Source: Nemertoderma westbladi (taxonomy: Eukaryota > Animalia > Xenacoelomorpha). From it: a stretch of 64,000 nucleotides of DNA. A program made the translations under genes and the position numbers. Under the pieces are notes generated by a model. The model worked only from the letters and a program-made list of their open reading frames with translations. It was not told the origin of the DNA and ran no database searches. Numbering within the stretch: the first letter of the stretch is position 1; the number at the start of each line of letters is the position of its first letter. The stretch lies in assembly GCA_032718475.1 (NCBI GenBank), contig JAUCBJ010007028.1, positions 167,186 to 231,185 of the forward strand. The letters are read 5' to 3'. Shown one piece after another: positions 18,484 through 59,915 of the stretch.

Positions 18484-18701
18484 TATTATATTATATAATT
18501 ATAGACTTAAAATTATAGCACAAATAAATTTCCCGACGTAATCATAAGTCCTTAAAAGAATGTGAAAATATCGGACTAAGCAAAATAATAATTACAAATT
18601 CAAATTCACTACACAAGTAAGAAAATAAATTTATTTTATTTTACAGGAAGAAACATTTGTTAGAGTAATTGTATTACTAAAATTAATAGAAGACGTAGTA
18701 A

Positions 18702-21690: not shown

Positions 21691-21695
21691 CCTCC

Positions 21696-22240: not shown

Positions 22241-22244
22241 GATA

Positions 22245-35111: not shown

Positions 35112-38100
35112 CTAATTCTGTTTTGAGGCAGGAGACAAATTATAATCTCCCGTCTCGATGCGTGTCTCCTCTAATAACACGATATCCTGGACCGGTCGGT
35201 CCAAGGTGTGTAAACCATTAGTTTTACACTTCTTTGGGTGCGGACACTTGCACCTAATTTTCACCGTGACTGTGCGCATTATATTTTGCACGTCTGGGTG
35301 TGTATGCAAGATCACACCTGTCTCCCAATACTTTTTCTTGACAATCGGCTCGGTTATCAATACGTAATCTCCCCTTTGGAGACTCTGAACCGTTTTGTAC
35401 CACTTTGTTCTGGTGGATATGGTGGGAAGATAGTATTCCCGCCAATATTCCCAGAATGTGTACGCCACAAATTGAGTCATTTTCCAGCTTTTACGACTAT
35501 ATAGGTCGGCACTAATGGGTTCTGATGCCGGCACAAGAAACGCTGGATTCTGCATTAGCAAATGATTCGGCGTTAATGCAACACCGTCCGGTAACATAGC
35601 TATCGGCCTCGAGTTTAGTGTATGCTCGATTTCGATGAAAGCTGTGACCAGTTTGTCGTCGGTAAGTTGTTTGTTCACAGGCAACGTTTTTGCAATGGCC
35701 TGCTTTACAGAGCGAACCAAACGCTCCCAACTTCCTCCTCTCTAAGGACTTTCTGGAGTATTAAATCTCCACTCTACTCTTTGCGGCAAAAGTGCTGCAG
35801 AAATTTCTTTATTCTGCGCCGCCCTATGAGCCGCGTTTAACTCGCTGTTCCCCCCGACAAAGTTTGTACCCTTATCGGAGTAGAACGCCTTTACTAGTCC
35901 TCTCCTGGCCATAAATCTCTTTAAGGCCAGGAGCAGAGATTTGGTCGACATGTCTGCCACACGCTCAATGTGTATGGCTCTACTACCCATGCATGTCAGT
36001 AGCAGACCCCATCGCTTGTGGGTCAGCCGTCCACTATTTGCCTCAATCGGACCAAAACAATCCACCCCCGTGTTCGTAAAGGGTGGGTCATATGCCTGCA
36101 CTCTCACTTCCGGGAGTTCAGCCATCTCCTGTTCCAATACTCTGGCGTTCACTCTCTTGCAAACCAGACAGGCGTCGTACATAGTGCCGACTGCCCTGCT
36201 TGGCTGCAATAGAATGAATCGCTGCCTCGCTGCCGACAAACAGTGTAACTTTCCCGCATGATGCAACCTCTTGTGTATATCCCATAGAATCGCTCTTTGC
36301 AATTCTATTGGGTGACTAGGGATTATCACTGGGAACCGAAACTGTGAGTTTATGTCAACAGTCTGGATTCTCGATCTATGACAAATCAAACCCTTATGGA
36401 TTAATGGACTCCATTTTCTAAGGGGTTTATAGAGAACTGGTCGTTGAGCCGATAATAGATGGAATTCTTTGGGGAAGGCACATATTTTATAATGCTTCAA
36501 ATGCTTTAATTCCGCTTGATCAATCTCATCCTCTGTCAGAGGTTGTTTCAATTTCTGAATTCTCTCACTATTAGTGCTCGTTTGTTCTCCCAAATGTTTC
36601 GAATGTTTCAAACAAAGGTACAAAATGTATCAGCTTAACCACGCAGTTCTTTTACAAATTGTCAGCCAAGAGGCAGACAAATTTAGTAATTTGTCATAAA
36701 TACTGCATGACTCTAAAGCCAGCGACGGTTGTCCGCTAACTAATGGAAGTTTCGAATCCAAACCCACAGGTTTGGAAACCAAAGGATCCATTATGTCGGT
36801 CATTTTCTGTCCGTCACTTACCAACTGTGACCCTGGTGTACTCTGTAAGGGTGGTTTTATGTCATAACTTACCCTTCCGGACCTAGTAGTCACATAAGTC
36901 TGTTGGTCTGACAGGTCTCCGGGCCGCTCCAATGACTCTTCAGGCCGCTCCAATGACTCTTCAGGCCGCTCCAATGACTTAAGTTTGGCTTTAGACTTCG
37001 ACTTAGAGACTTTATCCACCTTGACTTCTGCATCTTCAGGCATCGGATTGGTCACTATCTTTAGTTGCTTTGGCCAATGTTCCTGTGTCCTCGTTAGAAA
37101 ATCAGGTCCATGCAACCAAAACTCCTGCGACTCTTCCTGACAGAATTCCGCCGGCATTGCACCTCTCGAAGTTATGTTGGCCGGGTTTAACACTCCCGGA
37201 CAATGTCTCCATTATTCCTTCGTCAAAAAGTCGACGATCTGAGCGCGTCTGTTGGCCACAAATGTCTTTAGTGCAATATTGTCAGCCGCAATGTATACTA
37301 ACACTAAGGATGCGTCCGTCCAATAGAATAAGGTCAATGTCGTGTCTAACTCCTCAGTTATCTGCTTACTTACCTCGACTGAAACCACAGCCGCCTGTAA
37401 CTCTGCACGAGGGACAGTCATGTATTTGACCAGCATTGTCTTTGATCTAGAAGTCACAAAGGCCGTCTCAAATTTATCCTGACTCACCTCTCGGCGAAGG
37501 TAGGCTACCATACCAAAGCCGGTGTCACTTGCGTCACTAAATAGGTGGAGTTTGAGATCAGCTGGGAATAGCAGCTGATTCGGAAAGTAGGAACGGGGTA
37601 CATCTATATTTTTCAATAGATGTAACTCGGCTTCCCACTCCCGCCACTGCTTTGCATGTATAGGAGATATTGGTTCGTCCCACTCTATGTCGGACAACCA
37701 AATTTTCCTCATGCACGCTCGTGCCTGTAATATTACCGGACTGATAAAGTTCATCGGGTCAAATAGTCTACTTAATGTCGATAAGCAGATTCTCTTAGTC
37801 AAAATTTTGTCTGGGCTACTGGGCTCAAATCTAACTCTTACCTGGAACTTATCTGAGTTCGGATTCCAAGCGAGTCCCAGTACTCGCGCCATGGGAATTG
37901 GTTCTACCCCCAATTCTATGTCTCCGCTCCCGCGATCCTTCACCGGGAACGACTCTAATAGGGCCTCCGAGTTCGTAGTGAACTTGGTCAGAGGAAATCC
38001 CCCTGTAGCCAAGCACTCCTGTAGGCCGTGAGCCACTTCTATGGCTTGTTCCGCCGTGTCCTTGGACACCAATCCGTCGTCCATATAGAAGTTTCTCAAG

Positions 38101-39760
38101 ATGGACTCGATTACTTCTACTGGATACTTACCAATCTGGGCTGTTGCCGTTTTCTTTAAAACAAACAGCGTGCCATTCGGACTATCGCGGGCGCCAAATA
38201 TCCTAACGTACATCTGGTATGTAACCACTGGGCGGATAAGTCTTCATTCTCATACCAGAGAAAGCGAAGGCTATCCTGGTCTGCCTTACAAGCTCTTACC
38301 TGGTGGAACATCGCCTCGATGTCACAAGTAAATGCAAATCGCCGCTGTCTAAAACGTAACAGTATTCCAATCAAGTTATTTAGGTTGGGACCATCCATCA
38401 ACTCTGAATTCAGGGACATGCCTCTATAGACTGCTGCGCAGTCGTTGACTACTCGGACTTTGTCTGGTTTGTCAGGGTGAGTCACATAGTGGTGTGGAAG
38501 GTAATAAGTCTGGTCTGTCACTAAGTCAGGGTCCTCTACCTTCCCAGCAAATCCCTTAGCGAAATAGTTGTTGATCTGGGCGCAATATTTCTCCCTAATG
38601 TCCGGATTCTTTATCAACCGAGCCCTTACTCTGTTCAATCTTTTCAAGGCTAAGCTGTAGTTGTTCTCCAACTTAGGTGGTTGTCGACGCCACAACATTC
38701 CAACTTCAAAATGTCCAGTCGGTAGTAGACGTATGGTATCTTCCATCATCTCCAGCGACCGCTTCTCATCAGTAGACATGGCTAGGTCATATCCACCGGG
38801 TTCCATTGCGTCCCTATCCAGCCATTCGACGGTTCTGGCTCCTGTCTCGAGGTCCTGGCATATCAATTCCCTCTGTAACTCCTCCTCACTGTATTGGAAA
38901 ATGTCTAGGTCTCGATATTTAGCCACTTGACCCTCCACTATGTCGGTATAAGTCAAAACGTTAGTCAGATAAGTAGCGTGGGCCGCTGAACCAGACCCAC
39001 GGGTCTGATAACAGTAGTCCTCGGGTTCACTATCTGTCCGGTCGTTGTGAAGTGGTTCCGACAACCTAACATTATCGGGAATCAACTCCTCGTCCGACTC
39101 GCTAAAGTCACTATAGTGGTCAATACAGGTTCTCCTAAACTCGTCTATATCTGGTGGTTCTACTAACGGTGGTTGAGTTATAGGCTGTAATTCATCGTAT
39201 CTCTCCATTGGCTTGTCGCCACCTGTAAACTCATAAGACATGGGTACTCTTGTATACCAACCTAGTATGGTCGGTCCTATGGGCATGTGGTCCATTGACA
39301 TGCGGCTCAGCTGGTCTCGTTTCCCATATCTGGTGTGCGATCAGCTGTTCTGCACCAATTAATATAGAAACATTCCTATAACCTACCTGGTGTCTCGGTA
39401 CTCTGAGCTTGTCAAAATACTCCTGTGCTATGGGACTCATTGGCGGCACCTTACCTAACTGCCTGCCGAATCCCTTCATAGCTAGACACTTAAATCCATC
39501 CAATGGCAAAGCTTTTCGTTCTTGTCGAGTATGTTGGTCTCTCGGAAGTAGGGAATCTAGTTCTACAGATATCCTGTGTCCCTTGAAGTCTCCTACCCCG
39601 TGCATAGACTTCAACTCTATTTGGATCTCCTCAGCGTTCTGGAAGCTAGAAACGGCTCTCGCCACTTCCTCGTCGATATACGACAATGTGGACGCAGTGT
39701 CCAACATCACATATATTTGCTTCGATCCCTTATCTCCAGTGAGTTTCACCGGAATCACGC
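35112..39760 (-). pseudogene. Element B pol (protease, RT, RNase H, integrase) with several frameshifts and stops
   Basis: MLDTAS; YYLPHH, KVRVVND, DIEAMF, YMDD; FSDAS, PRAEL; H..H..C..C, VDCFGP, SDKGTNF. Confidence 0.93.
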
Positions 39761-42700
39761 TAAATATTTCCGACGTTGCCGATGATAAATACGTCCGCAC
39801 GCTGGTCGATGAACTATCCGCGGTGAAACCTTGGCAGGTCACTTCTCTTGCGCTCGATTTGCCATCCTCGTCCGACGAACCTGGTTGGTAACCGTCGTCC
39901 TGGATGCCAGTGAACGTATTCCTCCTAATTGATACGGGTTCTTTGCTCCCCTTCCTGTGAGGATTTCGCTGTAAGTAACGGTCTGTTGGCGTATGGAAAT
40001 CCGCATGTAGCAACTTGTGATGTAGTCTGCCGCATTCCATGCATCTGTCCTTGCTGTTCGGGCACTGCCGCCGTACATGACCTGGCGCAAGACAAGCCCA
40101 ACAGGTGTCCAATGTCCGCACTTGAACTCTTCTCTGTTCCGAATTTAATTCTTTGAACCGTCTGCAACTATCCAACTTATGGTCGTCAGATCTTACCTCC
40201 TTTAGTAAGCAGAATTGGCAACCTACAAATCCATCCGGCAACTCCTGTTGCTTTATCCTAGGTCTATCTAACCGCTCACCTGACCATACTCGCGAGTCTG
40301 ATCTGAAGGCTGGGGTGCTCGAATTATATCTGTCTACTGAGTTAAATGTCACAGTGGTCCTGTCATCGTCAAAACTTACCATAGACTTACTGGTAACAGG
40401 TTTAGACTCTCTCATATTCTCCTCTGAGAAGTTTGATTTCATTTCTGCTACTGCGTCTGTGGCTATCATGTCATGAATGTGCTGAAGTATCAATACTTTA
40501 CCTTGGCCCTCCAACTTATTCTCTAATTTGCACCATTTATGTCTGTAACGCATGTTTAAACGTCTTATTACGCTTTTCAAAACTTCGGCGTGATCACCAT
40601 GATGAGGTAGATTCACCGTCCTCAAGATGTCCAATGCGTTCGAAATAGCGTTCGCTAAGTTCAACAGCTCTAACGGAGTTGTAATCCTTCCGCCCTTATC
40701 CAAGTCTTCCACTATCGACTGTGCCATCTTGGTTTTATTCCCGTAGATGTCGCTAAGCGTCTTCATTGCTAACTCGAATGCTCTTTCATCGCCAACGAAG
40801 TTGTCAGCAATGGCTCTAGGTTCTTGATGGAGCATCTGAAGCAAATAGTTGAACTTCTCGTTGGGAGTAAAGGTGCTGCTGGTTAACTGCTCGTCGACAT
40901 AGGTTTTAAAAGTCCTCCAGTGCTTGTGGTTACCCATAAACTTCTGGGGTTGTTGCGTTGGCAGTCCTTGCCTAGCAGCAAACTTACCTATGTCCCTAAG
41001 GGTTGCGTCGTTCCGGGTTAACAAATGGTTTAGTTCCGCAGGGTTGTTAAGTCTGGTCCTTTCCCGGTGGTTCAAACTTACCTGCTCCGCGTCCGTCCTT
41101 CTTTCCTTATAGTTTCGGGACTTCTGACGTCTCATTTCTTCCTCTTCATCGCTTGATTCGGTGTCAGTCCTTAGCGCTCGCGATGGTTTGCGCGCCGAGG
41201 CCCTGACCCAAGCCTCCTCAATAAATTTCTTGGCTGAGTTTTCGAAATTGGGATTATGGATATTCGGGACAGGCGTCCTTACCTGAGGTCTATGTGGTAT
41301 AGTCTCCTCTGATATGCGTACTCGTTGACTAGGTTGGACTTTGTCTAACTCAGGCCTGCTAAGATTAGAATTACTTCTTACCTGGGCTGCTTCCTTTAAT
41401 CGTAGGTTGCTAAGCATGTCCGTTATAGGTTGGATGTGCGGCGATATAGCTTGCGCTAAACTAGCACTCAACTCATCCCTCGTAATAAATTCCTGGCTAG
41501 GGTTCTGTTGCATAGTCGGCTCTATCTGAGTAACCCGCTGTCTCTCATATGATCCCTCTTCCGGTTTAACCCGGAAGTTCTCCGTCAAACTGGGTCGGCG
41601 CTCCGGTCGTGTATTCCAAACCCGCGGGTTCGGTTCGCCAAATACTCGGCCCGTCGAGTTTCTCCTCTAAATTCTTCGTTGTCGCGTTCGGTGTATAGTG
41701 GTGCGGTGTTCCGATGACGTGGATCCTGGGCGATGGGTGAAGCACTAATACCAACTGGCGTGCGATATGTAGAGAACGGTTTAGCGATCCGTGTACTCGT
41801 AATAGCTGGACCGGGTATAGGAATTCTGGTCGTCGTCGACTCGCATATGGTCGGAGTTCTCGCTTCCTGTTCAGCCATCTGCAGTGCGAACAGTTCTCGC
41901 AACTCTGTCCCTACACTCGCCCCACATTCTTCGATCATTCGCATCCCCTTCTCAGCGATTTCGTTCGCCTTCCTAGTCCGTTCTTCGCTCTCTAAACTTA
42001 ATCTCGCACTTTCCAACTGCACCAGTTTACGTTCTTCTTCTTCCCTCGCTCGTCTCGCTGCGCTCTCTTCTTCCACTCGCTCCTTTTCTTCATACAATGC
42101 GCGTCTTCTTTTCTCAATCTCGAGTTCGCGTTCCTTACGTTCGCGTTCGAGTTGAAGCTCGCATTCCTTCTGTTCACGTTCGAGTTTCTTGCGTTTGCGT
42201 TCAGCTTGGAGTTCGCATTTCTTCACTTCCTGTTCGCGTTCGAGTTGGAGTTCGCGTTTCTTTGCTTCCCGTTCGCGTTCAAGTTGGAGTTCGCGTTCTC
42301 TCTGTTCGCGTTCGAGTTCCTCGCGTTGGCGCTCGGGTTGGAGTTTGCATTCCTTTTGCTCGCGTTCCGCTCGCTCGCGCTTACTTATCTCTTCCAACTC
42401 TCGTAACTCCGCGTCCAACCTACGTGTGCGCTCCCGTTCCCGCTCGGCTTCCTTCCGTGCTTCCGATGCATGCAAAACTTCCGCCTGTTGTTCATCCAGT
42501 CGGCGTCTTCTCTCCTCCGCCGAGTTGCGAGAAACAAGGGATCGAGCACATATAACTTTCCCTCACGCGTGACTAACCTGGGAATCACCGCTGTCTCTGG
42601 ATGCATCGTCGGGTGGAGTCAACGTCCTCTGTTGAATGTTCTCCGTCGTCGGTAGCACCTGGCCTGGTACCACCACTCCACTCTGCATCAGCCAGCTAAT

Positions 42701-43526
42701 AACTTCCCTCTGATAACGGCGCTCTTCCTTATCTTGGATCTCTTCCCGCTCCACTAAGTCTCTTAACTCTACGTCACTCACCTGAGTCGCCTGCAATTGT
42801 GATGCCCATAGCAGCCAGTTCTCCGTCCTAACTCGCCGAAGTCGCTCTGATAACGCGCGGTGCTCCAACAGGGCTGCCAAAACCCTATCATAAACCCTCG
42901 TCGCCACGTCGCTCGACTGAGACTCTACTGCCTTCTTCGCTAGGACTGCAAGCTCCTCCGTCTGCTTGAATAACGCTGAGTTATATCCTCTTCTAATCTC
43001 TACTAACTCTACCCTCCCGATGTTCGCTGAATCAGCTAACATCTTCCTTACCTTGTCCATCGTCCGAGTTATATGTCCAGCGTGCGTGTGAAGTTTCTTC
43101 TTTATCGCAATGTCTAGTTCTCTCTCGCTTACCTGACTTACACTTGGTGGACTTGAAGGATTATTTCGGGAACTACGGGTACTCCTTACAGCCGTTGGGA
43201 CCACGGCACTTACCATACCCACAGGTCTGGAAACCGGGCTCGGGCTCTCGCTTCTGCTACACTACCCTCCCTTCACTCACCTCTGTCCGGGCTGCTGTGC
43301 GGTCCTTCCTTACGGTAGTGGTAGGGGATCCTAATAATATTACTTGAGGTTGTTGTTCTTCCTCACTGGTCACTGTCTCGTCCTCCTGTTTGCTTACGTC
43401 AGCGTCGCTCGCTGCGTCGTCATAGTCGGCATTGTCGTCAACAGTAATATTTACGCTATCGTCAGTCGGCGGTCCAGCCGCCGTCTCATAGCTGTCCTCT
43501 AGTGCCTCCTTGTCTGAGGCACTCAT
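39761..43526 (-). pseudogene. Element B gag (long E/R coiled coil, capsid-like domain, BEL triple Cys/His array)
   Basis: ORFs 43257-43526, 42563-43222, 41585-42475 and part of 39231-41588; KF.G...W..F, EKFNYL; CQFC..H....C, CWACL..GH....C, CMECG..HH.LLH. Confidence 0.88.
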
Positions 43527-44618
43527 AGTCTAAATAATGTTTGCCTTCCGGCAAAAATCTCGCAAAATTTCGAGATATAATTATAATTTAACCAAAAATA
43601 CGGTCAAATTATTTGTCTAATAATCAGTTGGTCCAAAATGTCAAATAAATTCGCAATGCAATATTGTGAATTTAATGGGTTATATAGTTATAGCAAATAC
43701 TAGCACAATATTTAAACAAAAATATTATTATATAGCTACTATAGCAATTAAATACCGGTATGACACAAAATAACTTTTGAATCTAATACAAAATATTCAA
43801 AATAAACTTGCCACCCGAATATTTCTAATTTTACATATATAGCTCTAATCAACGTAATTTTAATTTCAAATATTATATGTATCCACTAACGCGTGGCTAC
43901 ATCTTCGGGTTGCGACTCTCTCTAACTCTCTCTCTAACTTGAGCGATTCAAAAAACCATGGCCGGCTAAACCTAAATATCCTAACTAATAAATTGAGTTC
44001 AGCTTCGCAGTTAAACAACCGATAATATTTTACTGCTTCCACAAACACAATGGTGCCAACAGAACAACCAACCTTGTTTGCTGTGAGATTCCACGTCCGC
44101 GTCCAAAGTTTCAGTTCCTTCGCTGATTGCAAACCGAACCCGCAGACCCACACGAACCCCAAACTTAGAAGCTCCGTCTTGCCATGTATCTCCAGATGGT
44201 ATAAAATAACTAAGCGGTTACCTAACATACCGGTACAAAACTCTAGAATTTTACAAATAATTTTGACCAAAACTGAATTCTCGCAAACCTAGCTAAAATT
44301 TTCAAAAAACTTACTAATTACAGTTTGCCCTAAGGCCTAAGGAACTGCTGTATTCGCAATTAGTAAAAACGCAATACCGTACATCCACTGTACGCAGTAC
44401 AGTAAGTAAAACAGTACACCAACCTAACAGCGTAATTGATACTGTGTGTGGTACGGCAAAACAAATGTCCCTTCTACCGTACGCAGTAACAGCAATCAGC
44501 CTAATGTACTACTGTACTATTGTATGCAACCAGTGAATACAGTAATCTAAACTAATCAGCCTAAGAATACTCTATTTACTGTACGCTACAGCCTACAGCA
44601 AACAAAAACACGTATTAC

Positions 44619-46830
44619 TGATAAACAACCGCGACACCTATACTAACAGCAGAACTGTTGAACAGACAAATACCCGTATACTTCTCTGCCAACCTAATGA
44701 GCTCTCGCCTAACCAAAAAGACACAAAGACTGCCCTACTGTTAAGTAAAGGGGATCAGGAGCGTGCTATTACTAAATGTAGGGCTGCTAAATACAATACC
44801 GCTACTTACCGTTAGATGGCGCTAATCTGCCATCCGCTAATATATTTCACTAAATTTACACGGCTCCTGCAAAATCGCTTGTTCCTTTCTCTACCGATCG
44901 CTCGATAGAGAGCTAACTGTTCGAATTTATGAGCCACGCGGGAATAACCAAAACAATAAACCTGAGTCGGCTCCCTAAGCTTACTTAAGACGAGTGCGAG
45001 AGGCTTTGCACTCAGAGTATTCTTACGCCTAATTTTATCACTATCGAAGCACGCTATTGCCTACGCCTTTTCTAATCGCGAATACGGGGGGTTCCCTAAC
45101 AGAATGTATGAATGCGAGAATATTTAAATAATCAAAATGATACAGTAATTTGTCTCTAAGTGGATAATACAGCTCTGGGTCTAAACTTGCCTGCAGCTGG
45201 CTTTAGGCCAGCAAATTACTAGTGTGTTGTGCGTACTGAATAATGCGATCTAGCTTATTGCCCGCTAATGCAAATAACCGCTTAGCGTGAATAGTTTACA
45301 GTACCCTAATTATTACTTTAGCTATTCTCCGCTATGCTGCGTACTAATTCTTAATTTTACTAATCAATTACAGTCACAAATATGTAACAGCGTACTAATT
45401 ACTAAGAGTTCCAGAATGCGTAATTCTAATTTATTACACAACAGGTTTCGCTAGTAATAGCCTAAAATGCCGTATTACTTTGACCTAATCAGTGATTAAT
45501 TGTTGTAACTAAGAAATTGAAATCAATCAAAGAGAAAGGCGCCTACCTAAGCATTCGTAATCATAGGCACACTTCAGTAACACACCAATCAGCGTCAGCA
45601 ATCACAGCTCGCAATTATGCAGTTAACTACTGTGTAGCCCACAGTTGTGCGATTCACTCTTCGTACTCCACACTTCACTCTGTAATACGTGCAGGCCTCT
45701 CCCGGGTACATCTAGGCTTCCTAACCAACCCGATTCCTGCCCCCCTAATACTAAATAGAGACGAAACCTGGATCATCAGCCCCCTAATTACTGTACCGGC
45801 GAATGGTCTGCATGCTACAGTGCGAAACGCCCGACCGCAACGGTGACCCCCCGCCAGCGTTGCCCGCCTTTGAATCCTCCGCTCTCCCTTAGTCGCCCAA
45901 CCCCCCGATGCGCCCACCGCCTACCGGCACCTTAGCCCTTCATTTATTTGAATAGCTACCGTAGCGGCGCATGCAAAATCACAAAAGTCTGACAGTCTCA
46001 GAAAATCCCTTAGGATTATTGCGTAGAAATGAATCACATAGAACCATTAACAAAAGAGGTAGAAATCATAGTTCCGATTGTAATTAGCAGTAATCGACAG
46101 GATTGATTGAGAAACGCAATTGAGAATAGTAGCACTAACTAATCATTTCAAGAAATTAATCAAAAAATAGCAAATTGCAGAATTACGCAAAATTATACTT
46201 CTAACTTAATGGTACGTAACAGATAGCAAAAATGGATTGAGTTGGAAGGTGGTGGTGGAACTACAGCTCTACCGGCAAACTGCCAATTTATAGGTGATCC
46301 GAGTGGGGTGATGCAATAAGGGTGACGCAATCGCTCTCCTATTGGCTCTCCAGTCCGCGCTAGCATTAGACCAACCTGGAAGCAGTTAGTCCAATAAGAA
46401 GGCCGGATTTTAGCCCTATTGCTTCTCAAACCCTCAAATTATTACCATATATGGTAATGGATCATGTCCCTGGCTGCGGAATGGTCAGGATAGCGTCCCT
46501 ATATGCTAGCCCTATCGAAGCTAATAACAGCAAGCACATATCCAGGGTCCAACTGAACTCGCTACCCTGGAACTATCTACCTATATCTTAATACAAAATT
46601 ACGTAGGTAGGGCTACATACTATACAAAATGGATGAATTCAAAATATATGGGCGTTTCAATTTCCATATCTAAATATCACTGCGCTATTATGCCTTATCT
46701 AAAATATTATACTGCACAACGGACTAATATTGCGTACAGTATAACGGACTAATATATTATACTGCATAATGGACCAATATATTATACTGTATAATGGCTA
46801 ATAATGTGTACAGCGCCATATACCGTAACA
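44619..46830 (-). repeat. 5' LTR of B (2212 bp)
   Basis: Minus strand TGTTACGG...GTTTATCA; direct repeat of 28771-30286. Confidence 0.95.
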
Positions 46831-46835
46831 GACGG

Positions 46836-49800
46836 GATAACAACTGCATAAGTTGCCAAGTTTGCCGGCAGTATTCGTCTCCGTCTATGATTTCCGATCG
46901 TGGGAGCATGGCTACAGGTTTTTCCAGTAGGAAGTGCGCGGGTGTTAGCGCTTCCAGGGAATCGGGACTCGATGAGACTGGCATAAGCGGTCTCTCGTTG
47001 AGATAGGCAGCGATTTCCTCCATTAACGTCCGCAAAAGTTTGTCGGTGAGATACGCGCGGCACGGCACTATAAAGTGAAATGCGGTCTTCACACTCCTGA
47101 TTAATCTCTCCCAACTTCCTCCCCACCAAGGGGCGTCGGCAGCTTGAAGGTCCAGCTAGACGCTGTTACCCTTAGCTGATCGTCCACCTGTCTTTGGTTC
47201 CAATCTTTGATGTAAGCCTTGATTTCATTGTTGGCACCAATGAAGTTCGTTCCCTTATCAGATTTCATCGTGTTACTAGTTCCAAAGCGAGCGATCTGTC
47301 TGCGTAAGCTCAACATGAAGCTATTGGTAGATAAATCGTTCACCATATCGAGATGGATAGCTCTACAAGTCATGCAGACAAAGATGACACCCCATCTCTT
47401 GACTATAATCCTAGCACGATATACTTCAATAGGGCCAAATAAATCCACACCGGTATTAGTAAAGGGTGGTTCATAGAAGCTTACTCGTTCCCTAGGTAAT
47501 TCTGCCTCTCGCTGTTTTAAAGGCCTACTGAATGCTTTCCTACAGGGTATGCAGTTCCTAAGAACTTGATTCAGAGCTCTACGGGGTTTATAAAAATAAT
47601 AGCGAGTTCGAATTTTGCTAAGAACTCGTTCTCTACCAGCATGATAAAGTTTACTGTGAACATCTACAATCATCTTGATTTGTATTTCAAGATTTCGAAT
47701 GAGTATGGGAAACTTAGTGTCAAAGGATAATGGAGCATTAGTGAGTCTTCCTCCAACACGTATTAACCCATCTATCATTGTGCTAGAGAAACGATCCCTT
47801 AAGCGCATCTGTGGATTTCTCAACAACAGGAAATACAGGAAATACAGGAAATACAGTATCTGCTTATTGGTTTCTTCATGCTCCTGGTAACTGATCTTCT
47901 CCTTCAGAAACCTGTCGGATATCTTGTATTTGGGTAGATCTTTAACAACATGGACCTGCGTAAATGTCAGTGGAGCAGTATCACTAGTGGTCTTCGTCCT
48001 GGAGTAGTGATGATGAAAACATCACTTTAAATATGTAACGGCCTTACAGAGCCGATTCCAGGAACTATAGTGATGTATCGCTCTCTGCAGCAGGGGTGAG
48101 AGTCCTTGCGAGACGTTTGGCGTTCCAGATTTCCAATCTCTCTCTCTGATTTCCACAACAGACTTATTTGTGGCGGGGGATTGTGGATCCAAAGCGTCGT
48201 CTCCAGAAGTGTGTAGTACCGACAGATCTATCACAGGTTTAAATAACTTCGATTTACTCACCCGGGTTTTAGGTTTGACTTTCTCCGCTCCCTTGGCTTG
48301 TCTAATCTCCACCGTAGTAAGGTGAGGAGGCCATTCATCCTCTTCCTGGCTCAGGAAGTCGGGTCCACCCAACCAGTCTGGAGTATCTATCAGTTCCTGT
48401 GGAGTTGCTCCCCTGGAGGCGATGTCGGCTGGATTAATCGTACCAGGGCAATGTCTCCATTGATCTATCTTCGTGCGACTAAGAATAATGGCTACTCTGT
48501 TGGTAACAAAGACGCTGAACTGACAGACTTCATTGGTTATATACTCCAACACGAGTAAAGCATCGGTCCAATAAACAGTTTTCTCCAGTGGATAATCGAT
48601 CTGTTCTGTTACATTCCGGCCGATGGCTGTAGCGTATAGAGCCGCTTTTAACTCCGCTTGAGGAACCTTCAACTTGTTGTTAATCAAGCCTTAGAGGTAA
48701 CCAAGGCGACTTTGATTCCATCCAGAGTTTCAACTCTCAGGTATGATACTATACCTATTCCCATATCGCTGGCGTCTCCAAACACATGGAGTTGATAGGA
48801 ATACGTAGGGAGAACATGACCAAAATATGAACGTGAAATTATAAAGTTCTCGATTGATGGTAGAGAATCTTCCCATTTCATCCACTTCTTTAATAGTTCT
48901 CCCTTAAGTGGATCGTCCCATGAGTGGTTTTCGAGCCACATTTGTTGTACTAAACTCCGAGCAATCAATATAACTGGGCTAATAAATCCCAATGGATCGA
49001 AATAAGTGCTCAGGATACTTAAACAAATCCGTTTAGTCCGAACTGGATTATCTCGCTGTTTTAGCTGAAAAAACAGGATATCTCTCTCTCTGTCCCATTT
49101 CAAACCAAGCGTCTTGGTTTCTAGAAGATCATCCTTGATCAGGTCTAGATCCTTTGCTCCTCGGTCTTCTACCGGAATCGATTCCAGAAACTCACGGGAG
49201 TTGCTGGTGAATTTAGTCAATCAAAATCCACCTCTTTTCAAGCACTCTACCGTTCCTTTGGCGACATCAATGGCTTCTTCTACTGATGGGAGGGACTTTA
49301 AATTGTCCTCCATGTATATATCCCGTTTGATGTTGTCGATCACCTCTTTAGAGAAGGCGTCCCGGTTGTCATCAGCAGTGGTCCGCACTACTGAGCAGGC
49401 GTTTGAAGGGCTTGAGATGATCCCAAAAGCCTGGATGGTCATCCAGTACTCCACCGGTTTCTGGTTGAGGTCTCCTTCATGCCACCACAGAAATCTTAGG
49501 CTGTCTCTATCCCTATCCAGCGCCTTGACTTGTAAGAAAATTCCTTCTATATCGGAGGCGAAAGCGATGGAATATTGTCGTAATCTTAAGAGTATTCCCA
49601 ACAAGGATTGGAGTAAGTTGGGTCCTGGTAACAACTCGGAATTGAGGGATTGGCCCATGTATAGGGTGGAGCCGTCAAATACGACACGGACTTCATGGGG
49701 TTTACCGGGTTTGGGAACGTAATGATGTGTTAGATAGTACGTTCTCTCAGTTATGGGTGTTTCTTCCAGTACTCGCTCCGCATATCCTTTGTTAATAAGT

Positions 49801-51041
49801 TTCTTCAACTGAGTTTTGTACATTTCTTTAGCTGAAGCATTTGCCGTAATGCGTCGATGTAGTTGCCCAATTCTTTTCTCTGCCAAGGGTCGATTGTTTA
49901 TAAATTTAGGTTCTCGCTTTCGAAATGCTAGACTGATTTCATATCTACCTTGATCTTTAAGAAAACGTGTAGTTGTCTCCTGGATCTGCTTGGCTCTTTC
50001 TTCTTCTACCGATAGGGCCTTATCGTAGGAATTGGGCTCTACAGACTCTTGAGTAAAGAATCGTACGGCGTGTTCATCTCGAGTCCTCGCGTTGTAGCGA
50101 TCTATCACGTCATTCAGTTCGTCGTTATAGTTGATTTGTCCTGATGGACGAATGAGTTGACATAGGTTCACTTGGTTTTGCCAAGTTTCGTTTTCCGTAA
50201 GGAGGTCGATTCCATTCTCTTTGTCGAAGAGTTGGTGGATATCGTCATTATCTGAGGAGTATGGTGTTCCCTCAGTTGGGTCGTCCACCTCACTGCTCTC
50301 CTCTTCCCATTCCTTTACTTGGTAGACCCGTTCTTTGGGTAACCTTTCCATGAGAGTTCTACGGGAAGGGCCAGTAAAGTACCAACCTACTCTAGTTCTT
50401 CCCGCATAGGTTTGTAGTGGTTGCGGTTGAGCAGGCCGTTTCTCCAATGTCTCTAGTGCCTCATGCGCGTTTTGGCCGATGAGTATTTGCACTCCAGGGT
50501 AGTTTGTGTTGAATCTAGGTATCTTAAGCTGCTGGGTGCACTCGTCCTCGTCCCAGTTATAAGGTTCCACTTGGCTGATAACGAAGTTCTTTATCGCCAC
50601 CATTTTTACTGACCTTATACTGTGTTCTCCTAATTCATCCTGGGGGGTAGACAATGCACCTACATAATAATCTGCAATTGTTGTAGATTTCGAAACCTGC
50701 ATAATTCCTGACATGTTTATCTTAGTTCGGAACTTGGGTTGTCCAGCAAAGATGTCTTCGGCTAGTTCTTTGTCGATGAATGTTCCTGTGCTGCCAGAGT
50801 CAAGGAGGGCGTTCACTATAAAACTTTTGTCAGGACCGTGGACTCTCAACTGCACTACGGGAAATTCTCGGATTCCTACGTTTGAAGTTGGTGCTTTCCA
50901 AGATGGTTGTCTGTCAAGAGTAGTTAGGGGGGACTCAATGTCGGTGTCCTTTTCATACGTAAGTGCTCGATACACTGCGGTATTTATTAAGTAACAGGAT
51001 TCGTTTTCATTGGAGAATTCGTCCGTATAGAATCCTTCCAT
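46836..51041 (-). pseudogene. Element A pol (protease, RT, RNase H, integrase), disrupted
   Basis: LLDSGS; YYLTHH, VRVVFD, DIEGIF, YMED (catalytic DD altered); FGDAS; NPAD..SRG; VDLFGP, SDKGTNF. Confidence 0.93.
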
Positions 51042-54000
51042 CTCAGAACTTTGGCAGTGTCATTCACATCACTGAATTGGACATGTAGTTCGGACTCACT
51101 TACCTGACTCGGGCTGTTTCGTTTGAATTCACTGTGCAACAAGATATGATGTTTTGCACCGCACTTTGCACACCTTGCGTCGGAGTAACAGGTTCGCCGT
51201 TGGTGTCCTTGTCTGAGGCAATTATAACATAACCGCTTATCCCACATGACTTCACGTCTGTCTATCAGGGATTTCTTTAGGAATTCAGCACACACACTCA
51301 AACGGTGGGGCCCGTCGCACAGCGCACATTTTGGTTTGATGTTACTCACTTTACCTTGGGTAACGTTATGCACTCTCGTTCTTTCCTCGGGCTTTCTTCC
51401 GTGAATTCTGTTAGGAGACGTAGGAGGAGTTTTGGTAACCTGTTCTCTCCTGTCATTGGTTCGAGACTTGAATTTACTTACGTCTTTAGGCGTTTTGTTG
51501 ACATAGTAAGATCTTTCAGTGTCTTTCCTGCTGTTCTCTTCTTGAGAAGCTTGGCTTTCGCCGTCGTCGATATAACACACTGGTGTTACCTTTCTCCTAG
51601 AAACAGGTTTCTCACTTACCTTATTTTCCGGTGTTTTCTCTCTGGACTGCATTAGGAGTTGTAATTTTACTTCTCCATCTAAGAATGACATGAGATCAGC
51701 CATGGTAGGGTCTCGTTGTTGTTGCTCCATCATATATAACGCTTTCTTGTCCCAGCGTGTACCTACTCCACCCTTTGGTAAAGTAGAGGCCACGGCTCCA
51801 ATAACCATGGAACTCTGATATTCATGAGACTTGCCTATCCAATCTAATTGTCTACAGACCTCCTGAATCTTATCGGAAAACTCTATAATCCTGCTACTAA
51901 TGAACTTTCGGGTGGCTACCAATTTTGCATACAAATACCTAGCTATGTTATTCCTATTACCATACCGTCCTGATGTTTAATGTATCCCAAACTTGTCTTA
52001 ATCCATCTGGATGTTCAATAAACTTTAACGCCATTAACTTGGGAGGTCCTTCCAAACACTCGATGAGGAATCTAAGTTTCTCTCCGTTAGATAGTACAGA
52101 GTTCTGTATGTTATCTTTGTAATATTCATTAAAAGGTAACCATTTAATCTCATCTCCATTGAACTTGACGATCTCTCCCACTTTGACCGTTTGACGGGCT
52201 TCAGTTCTAGCCATTTGACGCGCAAAACTTTCTTGGGCCATTGTGTTATTTAATATCGAATTATCGGTATATAAATTTCTCGGATTATTATCAGGTCTAT
52301 ATGAAATATTATTATCAACAGGTTTATAATTACCCTTAATAGGGTTTACTATAGGAGTTTCTACTTCACTAGCAGTATAGATGCGTGTAGGCTCCACACC
52401 TTGCGCATGAAATACTTCAGACCTAACAGGTTGACACATGGTTACAGGGGGTGGTGGTATACCCTTTTGTATATTTACTAATTTATCGCGTTCTAACGCG
52501 ATACTTTGCTGCACTTCTTGCAACTCTAACCTACTTTCCCTTACTGTGCCCTTGAACTGCTGAACAGTCTCCTGCATCTGCCCGAGCAGGAGATCCATCC
52601 CCCGCCGTCTCTCATCCACCCACTCGACCGCTGAAGCGGGATTCGCCAACAAAGTAGCGGGTGGACGGGAAACAACGGGCGACAAATCATGGATATTTCG
52701 CTCGGAGTCCAGGACAGGAACTGTCTCATGGGCTGTTCCGCTGGGTACAGGCAATTTAGTGCTATGCAAAGGGAATTTAGAGGTAGGTTCGGGGAGTACA
52801 GGTGTCTCTATCACCAAAGGGGTGGCTTCGAGAACAGGCCTAATTATTTCAGGCTCATCTACTATAGTAGGGAGTCTTACTGCCCTAATAATTTGGTCTG
52901 TGGGTTCTGTACTTCCTAAGTCTGTGCTAGCTATTTGCCTTCTAACAGCTGGAGGCAAATTAGGCAATTTCTGACGGTGAGACGTTCTTCTACGCCTACT
53001 TAGACGAGATCTATGTCCTCCGCCTTCAGGATCGGTGGTATCGCCTTCATCAGAGGATGTAAATCCCTGTCGTTTGGGATTAGATCGACTCATCATCTGC
53101 ATTTGACTAGCTGTTAACTGTTTATTTATGCAGTCTTGATTCTCTTGAATATTTTCCAACTCTAGTTGGGTGGTCTCTTCAGACGCTCTCCGTTCTGCTT
53201 CTGCCACTTTTCTTTCCGCTTCTGCCTCTGCCACTGCCGCTTTTCTTTTCGCTTCTGCCGCTGCCATCGCCGCTTTTCTTTCCGCTTCTGCCACTGCCAT
53301 CGCCGCCTTTCTTTCCGCTTCTGCCTCTGCCGCTGCTGCTGTCTTTCTGTCTTCTATACGTTTTTTCTTCACTTGTTCTTCTTGGACTCTAGCGATGCGG
53401 AGGCGTTCATCAAATTTAGCTTGGTTTGCAGCTAACATTTCCAAATCTATTGCGTCCAACACAAGCTTGGCTCCTTCACTATTAGGGCGAAGTCCATCCA
53501 GCCATCTCCTCAACTCTTCATCACCTAGAAATCTTTGATAGTCTGACAGATAGATGTCTATAGCGTTCCTCGTCTGCGGTTTCTCTGCTGTCACTTCGCT
53601 TTCCACTTGAGAGAAGGTAGCGTCTGTTGATTCTCCATGGGCTGAGCGTTCAGCCAGCTGAGATTTCCACTGGGTCGTTCCTTGAACTTTGAGACTCACC
53701 CGTTGGAACCAAGTCTTGACGGCCACTTGCAACGACGTGTCTTGGGTTCTTTTCGAAGCTTCCTCAAATAGCCGATAGGATTAGTCTGATTCATAGAGTT
53801 CTTTCTCGAACTTGATAAAGCAGCTCTCCCTGCTCTTGAGGTCCTTGGAGTTGTCAAAACAGTTGTTCTTCTAGTTGCTCCAAAGAGCTGAAGAATCCCT
53901 GTACATATCCTGCTGCCGACCTCTTCCACACAGCTGGATCCCTGGTTTCTTTTGTCACTCACATCCTTTATATGTCTTCCCAGGCAGCTTCTGATAAGTC

Positions 54001-54519
54001 AAACGGGAGTCTGGGTCCGGGGAAGTTCCATTGTGACTCGACAATAGACTTCAGTTCCTCCCTTGTATAACTATCCTTGGTCGATCGCCTACCTCTCGCC
54101 CAATCAATTTGGTGTTCCTCCACCGCAATCAATAACCTAGTGAGTACGGCTGCAAGAAGGATGAGAAGGGGATCCGAATAAACCGCATCTGCCATCTTTG
54201 CTCTGCGCTCGGGTGTCAGCTCTACAGTATCCAAACTACTGGAGCTGTCGGGCCGCTGAGAAATAAGTTCCTGGCTAGGGTGTTGCTGCTGTTTGACAGC
54301 TGCTTCTGCTTCTTGATCTCGCTTGACTTGAGCCCGAGTGCCTATGATAGACCTATGGTGTTGGATTAGCCTAGGGTCTGATACTACTACTGGAGGGATG
54401 ACCTTTCTTACAGTAGGAGGTGAGTTGAACTTTGGTCTCACACGTTCTACACTCCTGTCTGGGTCACAGATGGTTATATCTAGGAGACTGACTGACAGGT
54501 TCTGCTTTGTGTCAGACAT
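50987..54519 (-). pseudogene. Element A gag, frameshifted
   Basis: KFNGD...W..F, EKLRFL; CALC..H....C, CYNCL..GH....C, CAKCG..HH.LLH; A/E/R-rich coiled coil. Confidence 0.88.
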
Positions 54520-55138
54520 GTTTGTTTGTACAGTTGAATGCCTACTGCTATAATTACAGTTAAAGCAAGTCTAGTAATTCAGTATGACTGTTAGCCTAGT
54601 AATTAATTATCGATACTGTGACTCAGTGTAACGTGATATATATACACAATATTTTAGAATACCGGTATACACTTATAGTATATATAAGTATTATTACAGA
54701 CTAGGTTTGTCACAGAATACCGGTATATAATTTCAGCACAAATATATATAAATATATAATAAGCCTATCGTGAATACAGGTATACAGCTTACACTTATAG
54801 TATATATAAGTATAATTATAGACTAGAATTAATTACAGAATACCGGTATATAATTTCAGCTTAGATTTATAGAATAAATATAATAAGCCTATTGTAAATA
54901 CCGGTATGTCAATTATTTTAGAATAATTGAATTTCTGAATTTTAAGGGTTACTTAGTTACTTTACTTTACTTTATTACCGTTATTTAAGCAGTAGTCCAA
55001 CTGATATTAAGACCAAATTGTTGTATGACAGGCCTACTATTTTGTAAATCTATTTGAGTTGATTTATAATATATATATATACCCGTTTAATGGGTTTTGT
55101 TACAATATTTGAAATAAATGTTATTATTTCTGGGAAGG

Positions 55139-56349
55139 TGTAAAAGCTTTTGGGGGATATAACTGGCCCTTTTGCTTCGCAATCCAGTTTCCCCCAAGGT
55201 GCTCAAATACTCTAAAAAGCTCCCTAACTCAAAGGATGCAAGCTAGCGGCTGATTGGCTGATTTGCTGTACGTAGGGCCTCTTTGTTCTGTTTGATCAAC
55301 CAACCAGAGCAACGGTCAACCAAGCAGAGTGATTCATCCAGTGTGTTGGCTAAGGGCTGCAAAAACCCGAATAGTTCGGCATTTAGACATTCATGGAATC
55401 TGTGGAATTTGGAGCTCTGCCAATGAGAGCTATTCCTCTCTGTGTGTGAAAGCTACCTGCAACAACCCACCGAGTTCAGTGTGAGTGTTGGTTTTCCTAT
55501 GCCAGAACATCGGCTGTGGAATTATTCTGTTTTCAGACTTTAGCAAAACATTAGTAGGCTTTGATTATAGAAACGTATAACTGTTATCAAGTCATATCAT
55601 AACTCATTGCAACTCAAAACTCACTTATCATACAAAACAGTGCATATCTTAACTTACTTATACCGCATTATTTTACTGCTATTTACTGTCGGTTATTAAT
55701 TGTATCAGTTGATGGAATATTGTTATATTCGGAGAATATCGATAAATAATCATAAAACCCCAATCTTCTTGATACACTAAATGTTAGAGAGACCTGTTAC
55801 ATATAGCAATTGCAACTTACATTATCGTGGTTTGTAGTGAATCTAATGCTATTTCATAGGCTCTACATGAATCAATTGCTGCTCTCTTTATGTATGATCA
55901 AATTCAGTAACGGTCGGCAGATCAGTGTGCAGTATTGTGCGGTACCGGTAGTGTGCATGAGTGTGACTGATAACTAAGCATCTCCTAAAGAATGCGCCTT
56001 ATACATGAATCATAAGCCGTACCGTTGTGTTTAGTATAAGTCATAACTCTGTTTACATATTTAGAGCGCCACATCCTAAAGGAACTGTTAATATTTCCCG
56101 AAAGTGAATAATATTTGTCAGAGATTATATATTAACGATCAATCGAATAATACAGTAGGCTTACACCGCAATAAGGTCAGAGCATCCGAATCCAGTCTCC
56201 CGGGTATATCCAGCGGGTGAATGATCGTGCATCGGCTGGCTTCGGCTAATGCAGTGCATCAAATACTTGTCATAGGCTAAAGTCGATTTACAAACTAAAG
56301 GACATATAAATTAGCGGGTTAAACTGCTAAAGCTCTAAAAGCGCGAACA
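55139..56349 (+). repeat. 5' LTR of A'
   Basis: TGTAAAAGCTTTTG...GCGCGAACA; both ends match the A 3' LTR. Confidence 0.85.
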
Positions 56350-56675
56350 ATAACAGTTATTGCTTCTTTATTGCAACGTAAGCAATAAAGTCAAAAGTAC
56401 CGGTCGAATGGTAACCTGTACCGGTACTGCTGTAGGCCTGTAGGCCCAACTGCCCGAACCGGTACTGCTGTAGGCCTGTAGGCCCAACTGCCCGAAGCGG
56501 TACTTATAGTACAGGTACTAGTATTATTTTGATTGTGATATATTATATATTGTAGGCTGTTAGGGGATTAGGGATTGATCACCCCTTATTCCTTTGTATA
56601 GTTTACTTATTTCTGTCAGTTTTATTTACGTGTAAGTTAATAGTGAGCAGAAGACGTGTAAGTCTGCTCAGATTG

Positions 56676-57542
56676 TTCAGATAATTGTAGGCTGGACTGT
56701 TGTCTGACTGTTGTTAGGTCTGAAGGGATTGCGGTGTGTGTAGAGTCTGTCCGATAAAGTACCAGTTAGGAATGTAGGGGCATCTTGAGTTGTAATGTAA
56801 ACCCCCTCTGAAAGAATAAGTCGTCCTACTCGGTTAGAATGCATACTAACTAACCATTTCGGAATCTGCATATACTGTAGTTTATTTAGGCTTGATAGTA
56901 GTCTGCCAGCGTTTAGTCTGTATTTGTTTGTGTAGTCTGTTCAGGTACCGTAATATTATTCAGATAATTTGTAGGCTGGATTGTTGTCTGGCTGTTGTTA
57001 GGTCTGAAGAGATTGCGGCGTGTGTAGAGTCTGTCCGATAAAGTACCAGTTAGGAACGTAGGGGTATCTTGAGTTGTAAGGTAAACCCCCTCCGAAAGAA
57101 TAAGTCGTCCTACTCGGTTAGAACGCGTACTAACTAACCATTTCGGAATCTGCACATACTGTAGTTTATTTAGGCTTGATAGTAGTCTGCCAGTGTTTGG
57201 TTTGTATTTTGTTTGAGTATTCTGTACGGGTAGCGTAATATTTCTTATTTAGATAATTTGTAGGCTGGATTGTTGTCTGGCTGTTGTTAGGTCTGACGGG
57301 ACTGCCGTGTGTGTAAAGCATCTGTCCGATAAAGTGCTAGTTAGGAACGTGGGGGCATCTTGAGTTGTAAGGTAAACCCCCCTGAAAGAATAAGTCGTAC
57401 TACTAGGTTAGAACGCATACTAACTAACCATTTCGGAGACTGCATATACTGTAGTTTATTTAGGCTTGATAGTAGTCTGCCAGCGTTTGGTTTATATTTT
57501 GTTTGAGTATTCTGTACGGGTAGCGTAATATTTATTATTCAG
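56676..57542. repeat. Three tandem copies of an approximately 285-bp unit in the A' leader
   Basis: AGATAATT(T)GTAGGCTGGA...CTTGATAGTAGTCTGCCAG repeated near 56678, 56960 and 57250. Confidence 0.92.
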
Positions 57543-58710
57543 AGTTTATGCGATTACTCGCAACATTCATACCCCCAAGTTTATTCCTACAGTAATTGTG
57601 CTTGTTATACATACCGTTATAGTTAAATTAACCCCGGTACTACACGGGCTGCTTGGCGTAGGTAAAGACTGGTGATTTTGTGCCCCGGTCACTCCAGCAG
57701 ATACTGTGGTTCTTTTAACTGTTCAAGTATATTTAACTGCTGGTTATCTGTTATATAATTACTTGTACCTAATTTAGGGTTTAGTGTACAGTGCTTTCCA
57801 AAAGTAATTAGTGTGTAGGCAGTATATTTGTGTTGTAAAGTGGTTGATAGGCACGTTGGATCTGGTAGTCCGCAGTAATTAACCTCTAGGTAGGAACACT
57901 CCGTGAAACATAACGTAGTACTTATAGCGATACGGCTATAAGTCGTCAGACGGTGGTATTTTTCCTATCTGGACAACGCAGTATATTTTCTACTGCTTTA
58001 TTATTTTCTAATACCGTAGTATCCTGTCCGTTGTAATAACCAGAAACTAACCCTCTGTTAAGCTGGTTGGTCGTTCCCTGTCAAATTACCCTAAAAATTT
58101 GTATGTATAATTTTGTGTGTTTATTTAGAGATTGTAATCTCACCCTGTATTGTACGTAATTCGTAGATAAGTAACTTAGGCCAGTAGAATTATTTGTTTT
58201 AGTGTCCAATAAGTAGCACTTCACTGAGAGCGCACAGCTTCTGTGTAGTGATTACTTCCCAGAAATAATAACATCTATTTCAATATTGTAACAAAACCCC
58301 TCATACGGGTATATATATTATAAATCAACCCAAATCGATTTATAAAATAGTAGGCCTGTCATACAACAATTAGGTCTTAATATTAGTTGGACTACTGCTT
58401 GAATAACAGTAATAAAGTAAATTAAAGTAACTAAGTAACCCTTAAATTTCAGAAATTCAATTATTCCAAATTAATTGACATACCGGTATCTATAATAGGC
58501 TTATTATATATTTGTATATATTTGCGCTGAAGTTATATACCGGTATTCTGTGACAAACCTAGTCTGACATTATACTTATATACATACTATAAGTGTATAC
58601 TGGTATTCTAATATATTGTAATTAATTACTAGGCTAACACAGTCATACTGAATTACTAGACTTGCTTTAGCTGTAACTATAGCAGTAGGCACTCAACTGT
58701 ATAAACAAAT

Positions 58711-59690
58711 ATGTCTGACACAAAGCAAAACCTGTCAGACAGTCTAATAGATGCAACCATCTGTGACCCAGACAGGAGTGTGGAACGTTTAAGACCGAAG
58801 TTCAGCTCACCTCCTACTGTAAGAAAAGTCATCCCTCCAGTAGTAGTATCAGACCCTAGGCTAATCCAACACCGTAGGTCTATCATCGGCACTCGGGCCC
58901 AAGTCAAGCGGAATCAAGAAGCAGCTGTCCAACAGCAGCAACATCCTAGCCAAGAACTTAGTTCTCAGCGGCCCGATAGCTCCAGTAGTTCTGCTACTGT
59001 AGAGCTGACACCTGAATGTGGAGCAAAGATAGCGGATACGGTTTATTCGGATCCCCTTCTCATTCTTCCTGCAGCAGACAAACTACGGTATTGATTGCGG
59101 TGGAGGAACACCAAGTCGATTGGGCGAGAAGTAAGCGATCGACCAAAGACAGTTATGCGGGATACGCAAGGGAGGAACTGATGTCTATTGTCGAGTCGCA
59201 ATGGAACTTCCCCGGACCCGGACTCCCGTTTGACTTATCAGAAGCTACCTGGGAAGACATACACAGGATGGGAGTGACAAAAGATACAATGGATCCAGCT
59301 GTTTGGAAGAGGTCGGCAGCAGGATATGTACAGGGATTCTTCGGCTCTTTGGAGCGATTAGAGGAACAACTGTTTCGACAACCCCAAGGACCTCAAGAGC
59401 AGGAAGAGCTGCTTTATCAAGTAAGCGAAAGAACTCTGCGCATTAGACTAATCCTATCGGCCTTTGAGGAGGCTTCGAAAAGAAGACAGGACACGTCGTT
59501 GCAAGTTGCTGTCAAGACTTGGTTCCAGCGGGTGGGTCTCAAGGTTCAAGAAACGGCCCAGTAGAAATCTCTGCTGGCTGAGCGCCCAACCTATGGAGAA
59601 TCAACCGACGCCACCTCTTCTCAAGTGGAAAGCGAAGTGACAGCAGAGAAACCGCAAACGAGAGACGCTATTGACATCTATCTGTCAGAC
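58711..59690 (+). pseudogene. A' gag N-terminus (frameshift, stop, truncated)
   Basis: MSDTKQNLS... paralogous to 53968-54519. Confidence 0.88.
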
Positions 59691-59915
59691 TATTGGTAGT
59701 TCACTCATTTCTTGGTGTCCTATCCGCGCGTCCACCTTCTTACAAATCATACAGTTCCGTGTTACCAAACTCAGTGCCTTGCTAGGCCTAATCAGTACAA
59801 ACCTCGATCGTAAATGCGACAGACAGTGATTTCTACCCACGTGTTTGAGTTGTACATGTGCGTCCAGTATCATAGCGTGCTGTAACTCATGGTGTTGCGG
59901 TATGATGATAGGAGT
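59685..59915 (-). pseudogene. Orphan BEL integrase HHCC fragment
   Basis: PIIIP..H, HVQLKHVG...CMICKK..QEMSELP; resembles but differs from the B integrase. Confidence 0.8.

Follow-up and report, generated by a model that had tools for sequence, protein, structure and literature searches.

The 64-kb window, that is, the whole stretch of DNA analysed here, is animal DNA rich in mobile elements, and its nest of insertions was resolved by self-comparison and ORF analysis. Two LTR retrotransposon families, A and B, are described; family A is an abundant mobile element of this animal genome. The parts of the nest are as follows.

14031..15216 (-): 3' LTR of copy A, 1186 bp, preceded by a purine tract (15224-15217)
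15679..18490 (-): ORF3 of A, in two frames, predicted to hold a DEDDy-like exonuclease domain and zinc knuckles
28770-28382 (-): integrase remainder of copy A, continuing past insertion B
28771..46830 (-): family B element, within the integrase of A, with a 5-bp target duplication (CCGTC)
46830-44619 and 30286-28771 (-): LTRs of B, the 3' LTR without 697 bp
30956..34265 (-): ORF3 of B, spread over three frames; homologous to that of A
46831..55138 (-): copy A: leader (truncated at 55138), gag (ATG 54519), and pol interrupted by stops and frameshifts
55139..56349 (+): 5' LTR of copy A', TGT...ACA, 1211 bp, its end set by the A 3' LTR and the X5 contig
56361..59693 (+): leader (to 58710) and gag start (ATG 58711) of A'; similarity to A ends at 59693

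Purine tract, leader and gag lie as described in the preliminary description, and a reversed orientation was ruled out. The start of A' directly adjoins an antisense piece of A leader that resembles the purine tract of the family (55128-55139; 8-nt match), so that pairing of the leader with sequence preceding the polypurine tract (PPT) is conceivable; insertion at this point by chance, or a junction formed through microhomology, may account for the position. The A' leader contains about three tandem copies of a 284-290-nt unit (56685-57499). Inside copy A lie a LINE with endonuclease and RT (18702-22979, -) and a segment (23850-27322, +) that by eye resembles a restriction-endonuclease-type non-LTR retrotransposon. 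Elsewhere in the window, 516-nt inverted repeats (96%; 4591-5106 and 10347-10862) flank a 43-nt minisatellite array (5874-7293), and an AT-rich repeat of about 240 nt is present in three copies, one inverted, at 61198-63998. No tRNA gene was found in the 64-kb window, and no Rfam family scored above threshold in 55100-58800.

By sequence, A and B are BEL/Pao (Belpaoviridae) elements: LTR-flanked gag-pol in the order PR-RT-RH-IN, with BEL-type domains. The pol of B matched Pfam DUF1759 (E 6e-10), Peptidase_A17 (the Pao peptidase; E 2e-38) and Integrase_H2C2. For A, Integrase_H2C2 was the one Pfam match, but its RT, RH and IN motifs stand in order, and a homologue carries Peptidase_A17. Comparison of A with B gave 38% for RT and 24% and 27% for the ORF3 pieces, and in a quick tree the two join on long branches, so that their placement relative to the spliced-primer families described below is not firm. 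LTRs with TG...CA, a polypurine tract and a 5-bp target duplication were found as in BEL/Pao; the duplication is seen for B only, because A and A' are each without one end. The Belpaoviridae profile has LTRs of 0.2-1.2 kb, genomes of 4.2-10 kb, an env-like third gene and an 18-nt PBS for tRNA-Arg or tRNA-Gly, BEL/Pao being primed by host tRNA (PMC8742986). The present elements are like Belpaoviridae (Semotivirus) in the order LTR-gag-PR-RT-RH-IN-extra ORF-PPT-LTR, in the DUF1759 and Pao peptidase of B and in the 5-bp duplication (PMC8742986). They are unlike the profile in that neither A' nor B has the 18-nt tRNA PBS, in the 2.2-kb LTR and 18-kb span of B, and in an exonuclease-like ORF3.

An ORF3 profile search retrieved seven proteins at E up to 1e-3, four of which align with the C-terminal ORF3 pieces of A/B at an hhalign probability of 98.9%. 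The ORF3 domain profile matched B at E 3e-15 and A at E 6e-6, and reported none of three control proteins and one further ORF3 piece. For the low-confidence model of one homologue, P0005 (pLDDT 33), the Foldseek rows listed were all DEDDy-fold (EXD2, Rrp6, Egalitarian and WRN; best E 1.9e-3). Matches to Pfam PF01612 and to a PHROG exonuclease were weak (E 0.2 in both cases), and the ExoI DxE of A aligns in register, below significance. These profile and model matches make a DEDDy-type exonuclease, joined to zinc knuckles, the likely but still putative product of ORF3 in A and B. An ORF3 word search gave no match and a search with A5 only P0005 itself; the N-terminal ORF3 pieces had no hhalign match to A5, PDB sequence searches gave zinc-knuckle or chance matches only, and NCBIfam gave none. 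ORF3-type proteins with a DEDDy-like exonuclease and a zinc knuckle were seen in BEL elements (P0004, P0005, P0008, P0009 and P0010); in P0008 the ORF3 domain is fused behind a BEL gag-protease, and no RT domain was reported by Pfam. According to passages of PMC5408684, the bdelloid rotifer LTR elements Juno and Vesta have a DEDDy-exonuclease ORF3, and A and B are like them in carrying, after pol, a third ORF, here with a predicted DEDDy-like 3'-5' exonuclease. Unlike theirs, the ORF3 of A/B stands in BEL/Pao, joined to zinc knuckles and alongside a non-tRNA PBS. The terms 'PBS' and 'self-prim' are absent from the available text of PMC5408684.

The positions that bear on priming in family A are given below.

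14791..14801 (-): 11-nt complement in the A 3' LTR, identical site kept
55420..55480 (+): candidate upstream promoter, with CCAAT (55420) and TCAGT (55476)
55531..55588 (+): conserved block, 57/58 identical between A and A', ending one base past the complement; TATAGAAA at 55566
55577..55587 (+): LTR-internal 11-nt complement (LTR positions 439-449), candidate self-primer
55589..55661 (+): variable G-poor, A/C-rich stretch, with other letters in A and in contigs of three runs
56350..56360 (+): primer-binding position of A', no TGG, interrupted palindrome
56366..56390 (+): predicted hairpin of 9 bp just past the PBS, with a common 2-nt deletion at 56376 in its loop

The A' LTR had been described as ending at 56349, and this was borne out, as were all the other coordinates: the last letters are GCGAACA, the A 3' LTR runs on into unrelated sequence and the match of a contig from run X5 stops there. 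Since both end at 56349, a later CA (56355) was ruled out as the LTR end. The PBS at 56350-56360 is the exact reverse complement of 55577-55587, as had been claimed, and the 11-nt pairing is flush with the LTR boundary and not extendable by one base on either side. The complement is kept in the 3' LTR of A. The reported lack of TGG at the PBS was also found: the first TGG is at 56409, 59 nt past the LTR end, and 56408-56409 differs in most family contigs. The proposed shuffle test was run, and a flush complement of at least 11 nt was obtained in 4/5000 shuffles of the LTR keeping 2-mers and in 18, 57 and 226 of 5000 keeping 3-, 4- and 5-mers, respectively. Complementarity to the A' LTR was found for 49/115070 window 11-mers; one of 2320 positions of the A' leader also has an 11-nt complement, and no other inverted repeat in 55139-56500 is as long as the A' pair. 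For A, a longer duplex upstream of the 11 nt was ruled out (1051/2000 shuffles).

The caveat that the motif is nearly palindromic stands, for A alone. The site is an interrupted palindrome and thus also a 10-of-11 direct repeat, so that a duplicated binding site is possible for A alone. With the terminal CA of the LTR, the palindrome of the A PBS extends to 15 nt (56348-56362) and, on structural prediction, could form a hairpin competing with the primer duplex. No enrichment of CNGTTA was found in the window (65 sites, about the composition expectation by a hand estimate), and the exact 26-nt LTR-PBS pattern had no match in the metagenome contigs.

Contigs of four sequencing runs were placed on 55050-56800, and the post-LTR site was covered in 4/4 runs. 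No variant fell in either 11-nt site among the 40 of 375 variant rows listed. The LTRs of A and A' had been said to diverge right after the complement. A divergence of about 73 nt (42/64 identical) was indeed found, but one more base is shared before it, and the two LTRs then re-converge (649/685). With near-identity up to the site and divergence after it, the conserved block ends at the 3' edge of the site. At the start of the variable stretch, 1-3 nt past the complement, G-poor replacement letters were found in five contigs of three runs; among the joints listed (15 of 24), four start at 55588-55590. The variable stretch of A and its counterpart in B (46192-46261) are both G-poor and A/C-rich, with sharp 5' edges, and that of the A 3' LTR shows short tandem duplications. 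These hypervariable stretches may be scars left by template ends. That A and A' arose by fold-back of a single RNA was ruled out (U3 only 199/275 identical).

Family B was analysed in the same way, at the positions that follow.

44609..44618 (-): primer-binding position of B (10 nt), without TGG; a hairpin is predicted next to it, at 44606-44571
45682..45691 (-): LTR-internal complement of B, 10 nt, 11 with G-U
46192..46292 (-): TATA box of B (46292) and variable G-poor stretch, which begins at 46261

The first TGG is 86 nt past the B LTR end, and the 10-nt flush complement, which is non-palindromic, was reached in 14/5000 shuffles. Against 45517-46213, the B 3' LTR is without 697 bp (at 29669), the complement included; the LTRs are otherwise 98-99% identical. 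The segment is covered in X1, X3 and X5, and its loss is thus a deletion in this B copy. Two of twelve B joints, from diverged contigs, begin at 45690/45691 and replace 45602/45616-45690 with the complement included, which counts against self-priming. The preliminary description had treated the two families as independent cases with the same geometry, and neither point was supported in that form. A and B are related through RT and ORF3, and therefore provide two coincidences but probably one origin. The B match is 10 nt (11 with G-U) and lies 1063 nt from the LTR end, as against 762 nt in A; its complement is missing from the 3' LTR through the deletion. In B, TATAAA is followed after 30 nt by the variable stretch, which precedes the complement by 570 nt. 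Judged from its sequence, B supports the PBS-LTR relation but not an identical geometry.

Metagenome contigs were scanned by RT alignment, and 79 loci were kept from 511 confirmed BEL stretches. A long direct repeat was found in 35 of the 79 and a shared LTR 3' end in 16; 11 families were left after dropping four duplicates and L069, the end of which lies at a contig edge (L017, too, stops at a contig edge, and the start of the L023 LTR was placed by eye). In all eight families without TGG (L004, L009, L012, L016, L023, L035, L042 and L046), sequence 0-3 nt from the LTR end has a complement of 11-15 nt within the family's own LTR that spans a GT-AG junction; the PBS finds its partner only where the exons flanking an LTR intron are joined. 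A splice junction exists only in RNA. The spliced complements were matched by 0-4 of 300 shuffles each, whereas none of the three TGG families had one (at most 7 nt). Not all eight are independent (L004 is kin to L012, and L042 to L046). The predicted primer end lies 5-7 nt past the acceptor; an A[AT]TAAA poly(A) signal follows it in 7/8, and in 4/8 the 40 nt that come next resemble A, with A/C making up half or more and 3-7 G. Each of the eight PBSs, which are without the A-type palindrome, matches only its own or a close relative's LTR. Of 12 foreign PBSs, none reached a 10-nt match to the A' LTR, even when splicing and an offset of 0-3 were permitted; two, mutually related, did so on the 2.2-kb LTR of B in a permissive search, which counts against self-priming. 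A splice-built primer was ruled out for A (best 7 nt; 139/300 shuffles) and for B (best 8 nt; 134/300). Fourteen further loci without a fixed LTR end gave seven spliced and three contiguous candidates, which were left out of the counts because no null was computed. Viral-contig scans with RT gave no relative.

We take CCAAT (55420) and TCAGT (55476) to be candidate upstream promoter motifs of A'. The promoter motifs of this LTR would permit RNA starts at 55479, 55577 or about 55596. The predicted pair probability of the A' duplex was 0.78-0.90 for an RNA starting at 55560-55577 and 0.22-0.79 for a start at 55550. It was 0.00-0.09 for starts at 55479 (the TCAGT candidate), 55510 and 55537, which counts against self-priming. 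For an RNA folded from 55577, the 36 nt directly following the duplex are predicted to be unpaired. For B the predicted probability was about 1.0 from starts at 45692-45751 and 0.0 from 45950 or from the TATA-predicted start at 46262, the latter again counting against self-priming. Long-range folds are fragile, so folding says only that a 5' end near the site favours pairing. Two further observations count against self-priming: read by the TATA+30 logic of B, the A complement would end just upstream of the start, in U3, and no canonical AATAAA follows the site in A.

The geometry had been compared to that of Tf1, the primer of which is the first 11 bases of its own RNA, cut by RNase H (passages of PMC7175516, PMC4600332, PMC5341516 and PMC10085805). 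One part of the comparison stood: A has a flush PBS complement of 11 nt in its own LTR. In Tf1 and Tf2 of Schizosaccharomyces pombe, in Tj1 and in the Tf1/sushi group a tRNA PBS is likewise missing, and the roughly 11 nt that follow the 5' LTR have their complement at an LTR site (passages of PMC7175516, PMC4600332 and PMC5341516). The other part did not: the two flanking pretzel duplexes of Tf1 (in the passages of PMC10085805) were not above shuffles in A or B, the best being reached by 13 to 295 of 300 shuffles in nine tests, of which the 13/300 case is one weak duplex. In Tf1 the first 11 nt of the RNA are the primer; in A the loop would be 762 nt, and the site may lie elsewhere than at the first 11 nt of the RNA. 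Unlike the Tf1/sushi elements, which are Ty3/gypsy chromoviruses, A has a BEL-type pol, and Pfam reported no chromodomain in the integrase pieces scanned. As far as these sequences tell, the A element likely works like Tf1 but is no member of the Tf1/sushi group. Self-priming has also been predicted for the plant lineages TAR (copia) and Tcn1 (gypsy), and by the rule applied there, complementarity over at least 10 bp that begins 0-5 bp past the 5' LTR, A would be classed with them (passages of PMC6317226). It differs in belonging to another superfamily; the TAR and Tcn1 cases are themselves predictions, and BEL/Pao does not appear in the passages of PMC6317226.

Taken together, family A is a BEL/Pao element without a tRNA primer site that is probably self-primed by its own RNA, with the primer end at 55587. 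RNA 55577-55587 would pair with the PBS at 56350-56360, and a cut after 55587 would place the primer end flush with the LTR boundary. The site would lie in R, near the 5' end of the RNA, and by analogy with Tf1 the cut would be made by the RNase H of the element. Minus-strand DNA would then stop at 55588 and jump to the 3' LTR, and the variable G-poor stretch may mark this junction or serve as an unpaired spacer. In each cycle the PBS would be rewritten when plus-strand synthesis copies the primer, and the pair would thereby stay perfect while its sequence drifts between families. The earlier claims that the complement exceeds chance and that a tRNA-type PBS is missing were supported, and self-priming is the best reading of them, backed by the 8/8 non-TGG BEL families.

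A chance match in AT-rich sequence is very improbable. It is favoured by the shuffles keeping 4-mers and 5-mers that reach 11 nt, by the one leader position with an equal complement and by the very many windows read in the scan; the same relation in B and in 8/8 non-TGG families but in 0/3 TGG families, with conservation ending at the site edge, speaks against it. That the pairing or palindrome has another job (RNA switch, packaging or dimer signal, or doubled transcription-factor site), and that an unknown host RNA such as a tRNA fragment primes, is unlikely. In its favour, the palindrome at the A site could fold into a local hairpin together with the LTR end (56300-56400, z -3.2), and half-tRNA primers exist in copia lineages (passages of PMC6317226). 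Against this, TAACNGTTA occurs only three times in the 64 kb, always at these PBS/LTR sites and with the complementary middle base; B and the eight other families are not palindromic in this manner, each matching only its own or a close relative's LTR, and a structural role predicts no end flush with the LTR.

It is rather unlikely that the RNA starts in the variable stretch, so that the complement, as the end of U3, occurs only in the RNA's 3' LTR or in a short transcript of the LTR and pairs with the PBS from there, and that the ORF3 exonuclease trims the unpaired tail to the duplex, making the primer end. In its favour, TATAGAAA lies 23 nt before the variable stretch of A, and the B stretch begins 30 nt after TATAAA; ORF3 of A/B matches homologues (98.9%; E 3e-15 and 6e-6) whose model retrieves DEDDy-fold nucleases, and the stretch after the site is G-poor and predicted to be unpaired. 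Against it, the B complement lies 570 nt inside the predicted transcript, and exonuclease activity is only predicted (model pLDDT 33, best E 2e-3). An ORF3 relative was found in 0/79 metagenome BEL loci, the spliced-primer families included, so that self-priming there does without ORF3. The broader proposal, that the ORF3-bearing BEL/Pao lineage makes its primer with its own DEDDy exonuclease and zinc knuckles, trimming a G-poor tail to the LTR-PBS duplex, is distinctly unlikely on the present sequences. If trimming did take place, it would add a third mode of priming for LTR reverse transcription and give the DEDDy ORF3s of retrotransposons their first function.

Searches of the literature, mainly of open-access main texts, listed no paper on self-priming in BEL/Pao. 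Term look-up found no primer passage in the available text of PMC3118150 and PMC12440569, and the passages of PMC3601003 and PMC13524379 hold nothing on BEL/Pao self-priming. Self-priming is known from Tf1 and DEDDy ORF3s from rotifer elements; what is likely new here is the candidate for self-priming in BEL/Pao. If such priming is common in the superfamily (A, B and 8/11 readable families), independence from tRNA would not be peculiar to the Tf1 group. Self-priming elements would then escape control by tRNA fragments and go unseen by PBS-based annotation. With the exonuclease-like ORF3, a specific role can be proposed for an accessory gene of unknown function. Contiguous (A and B) and splice-built (metagenome) candidate primers within one superfamily would allow tests of how primers are made and inherited.
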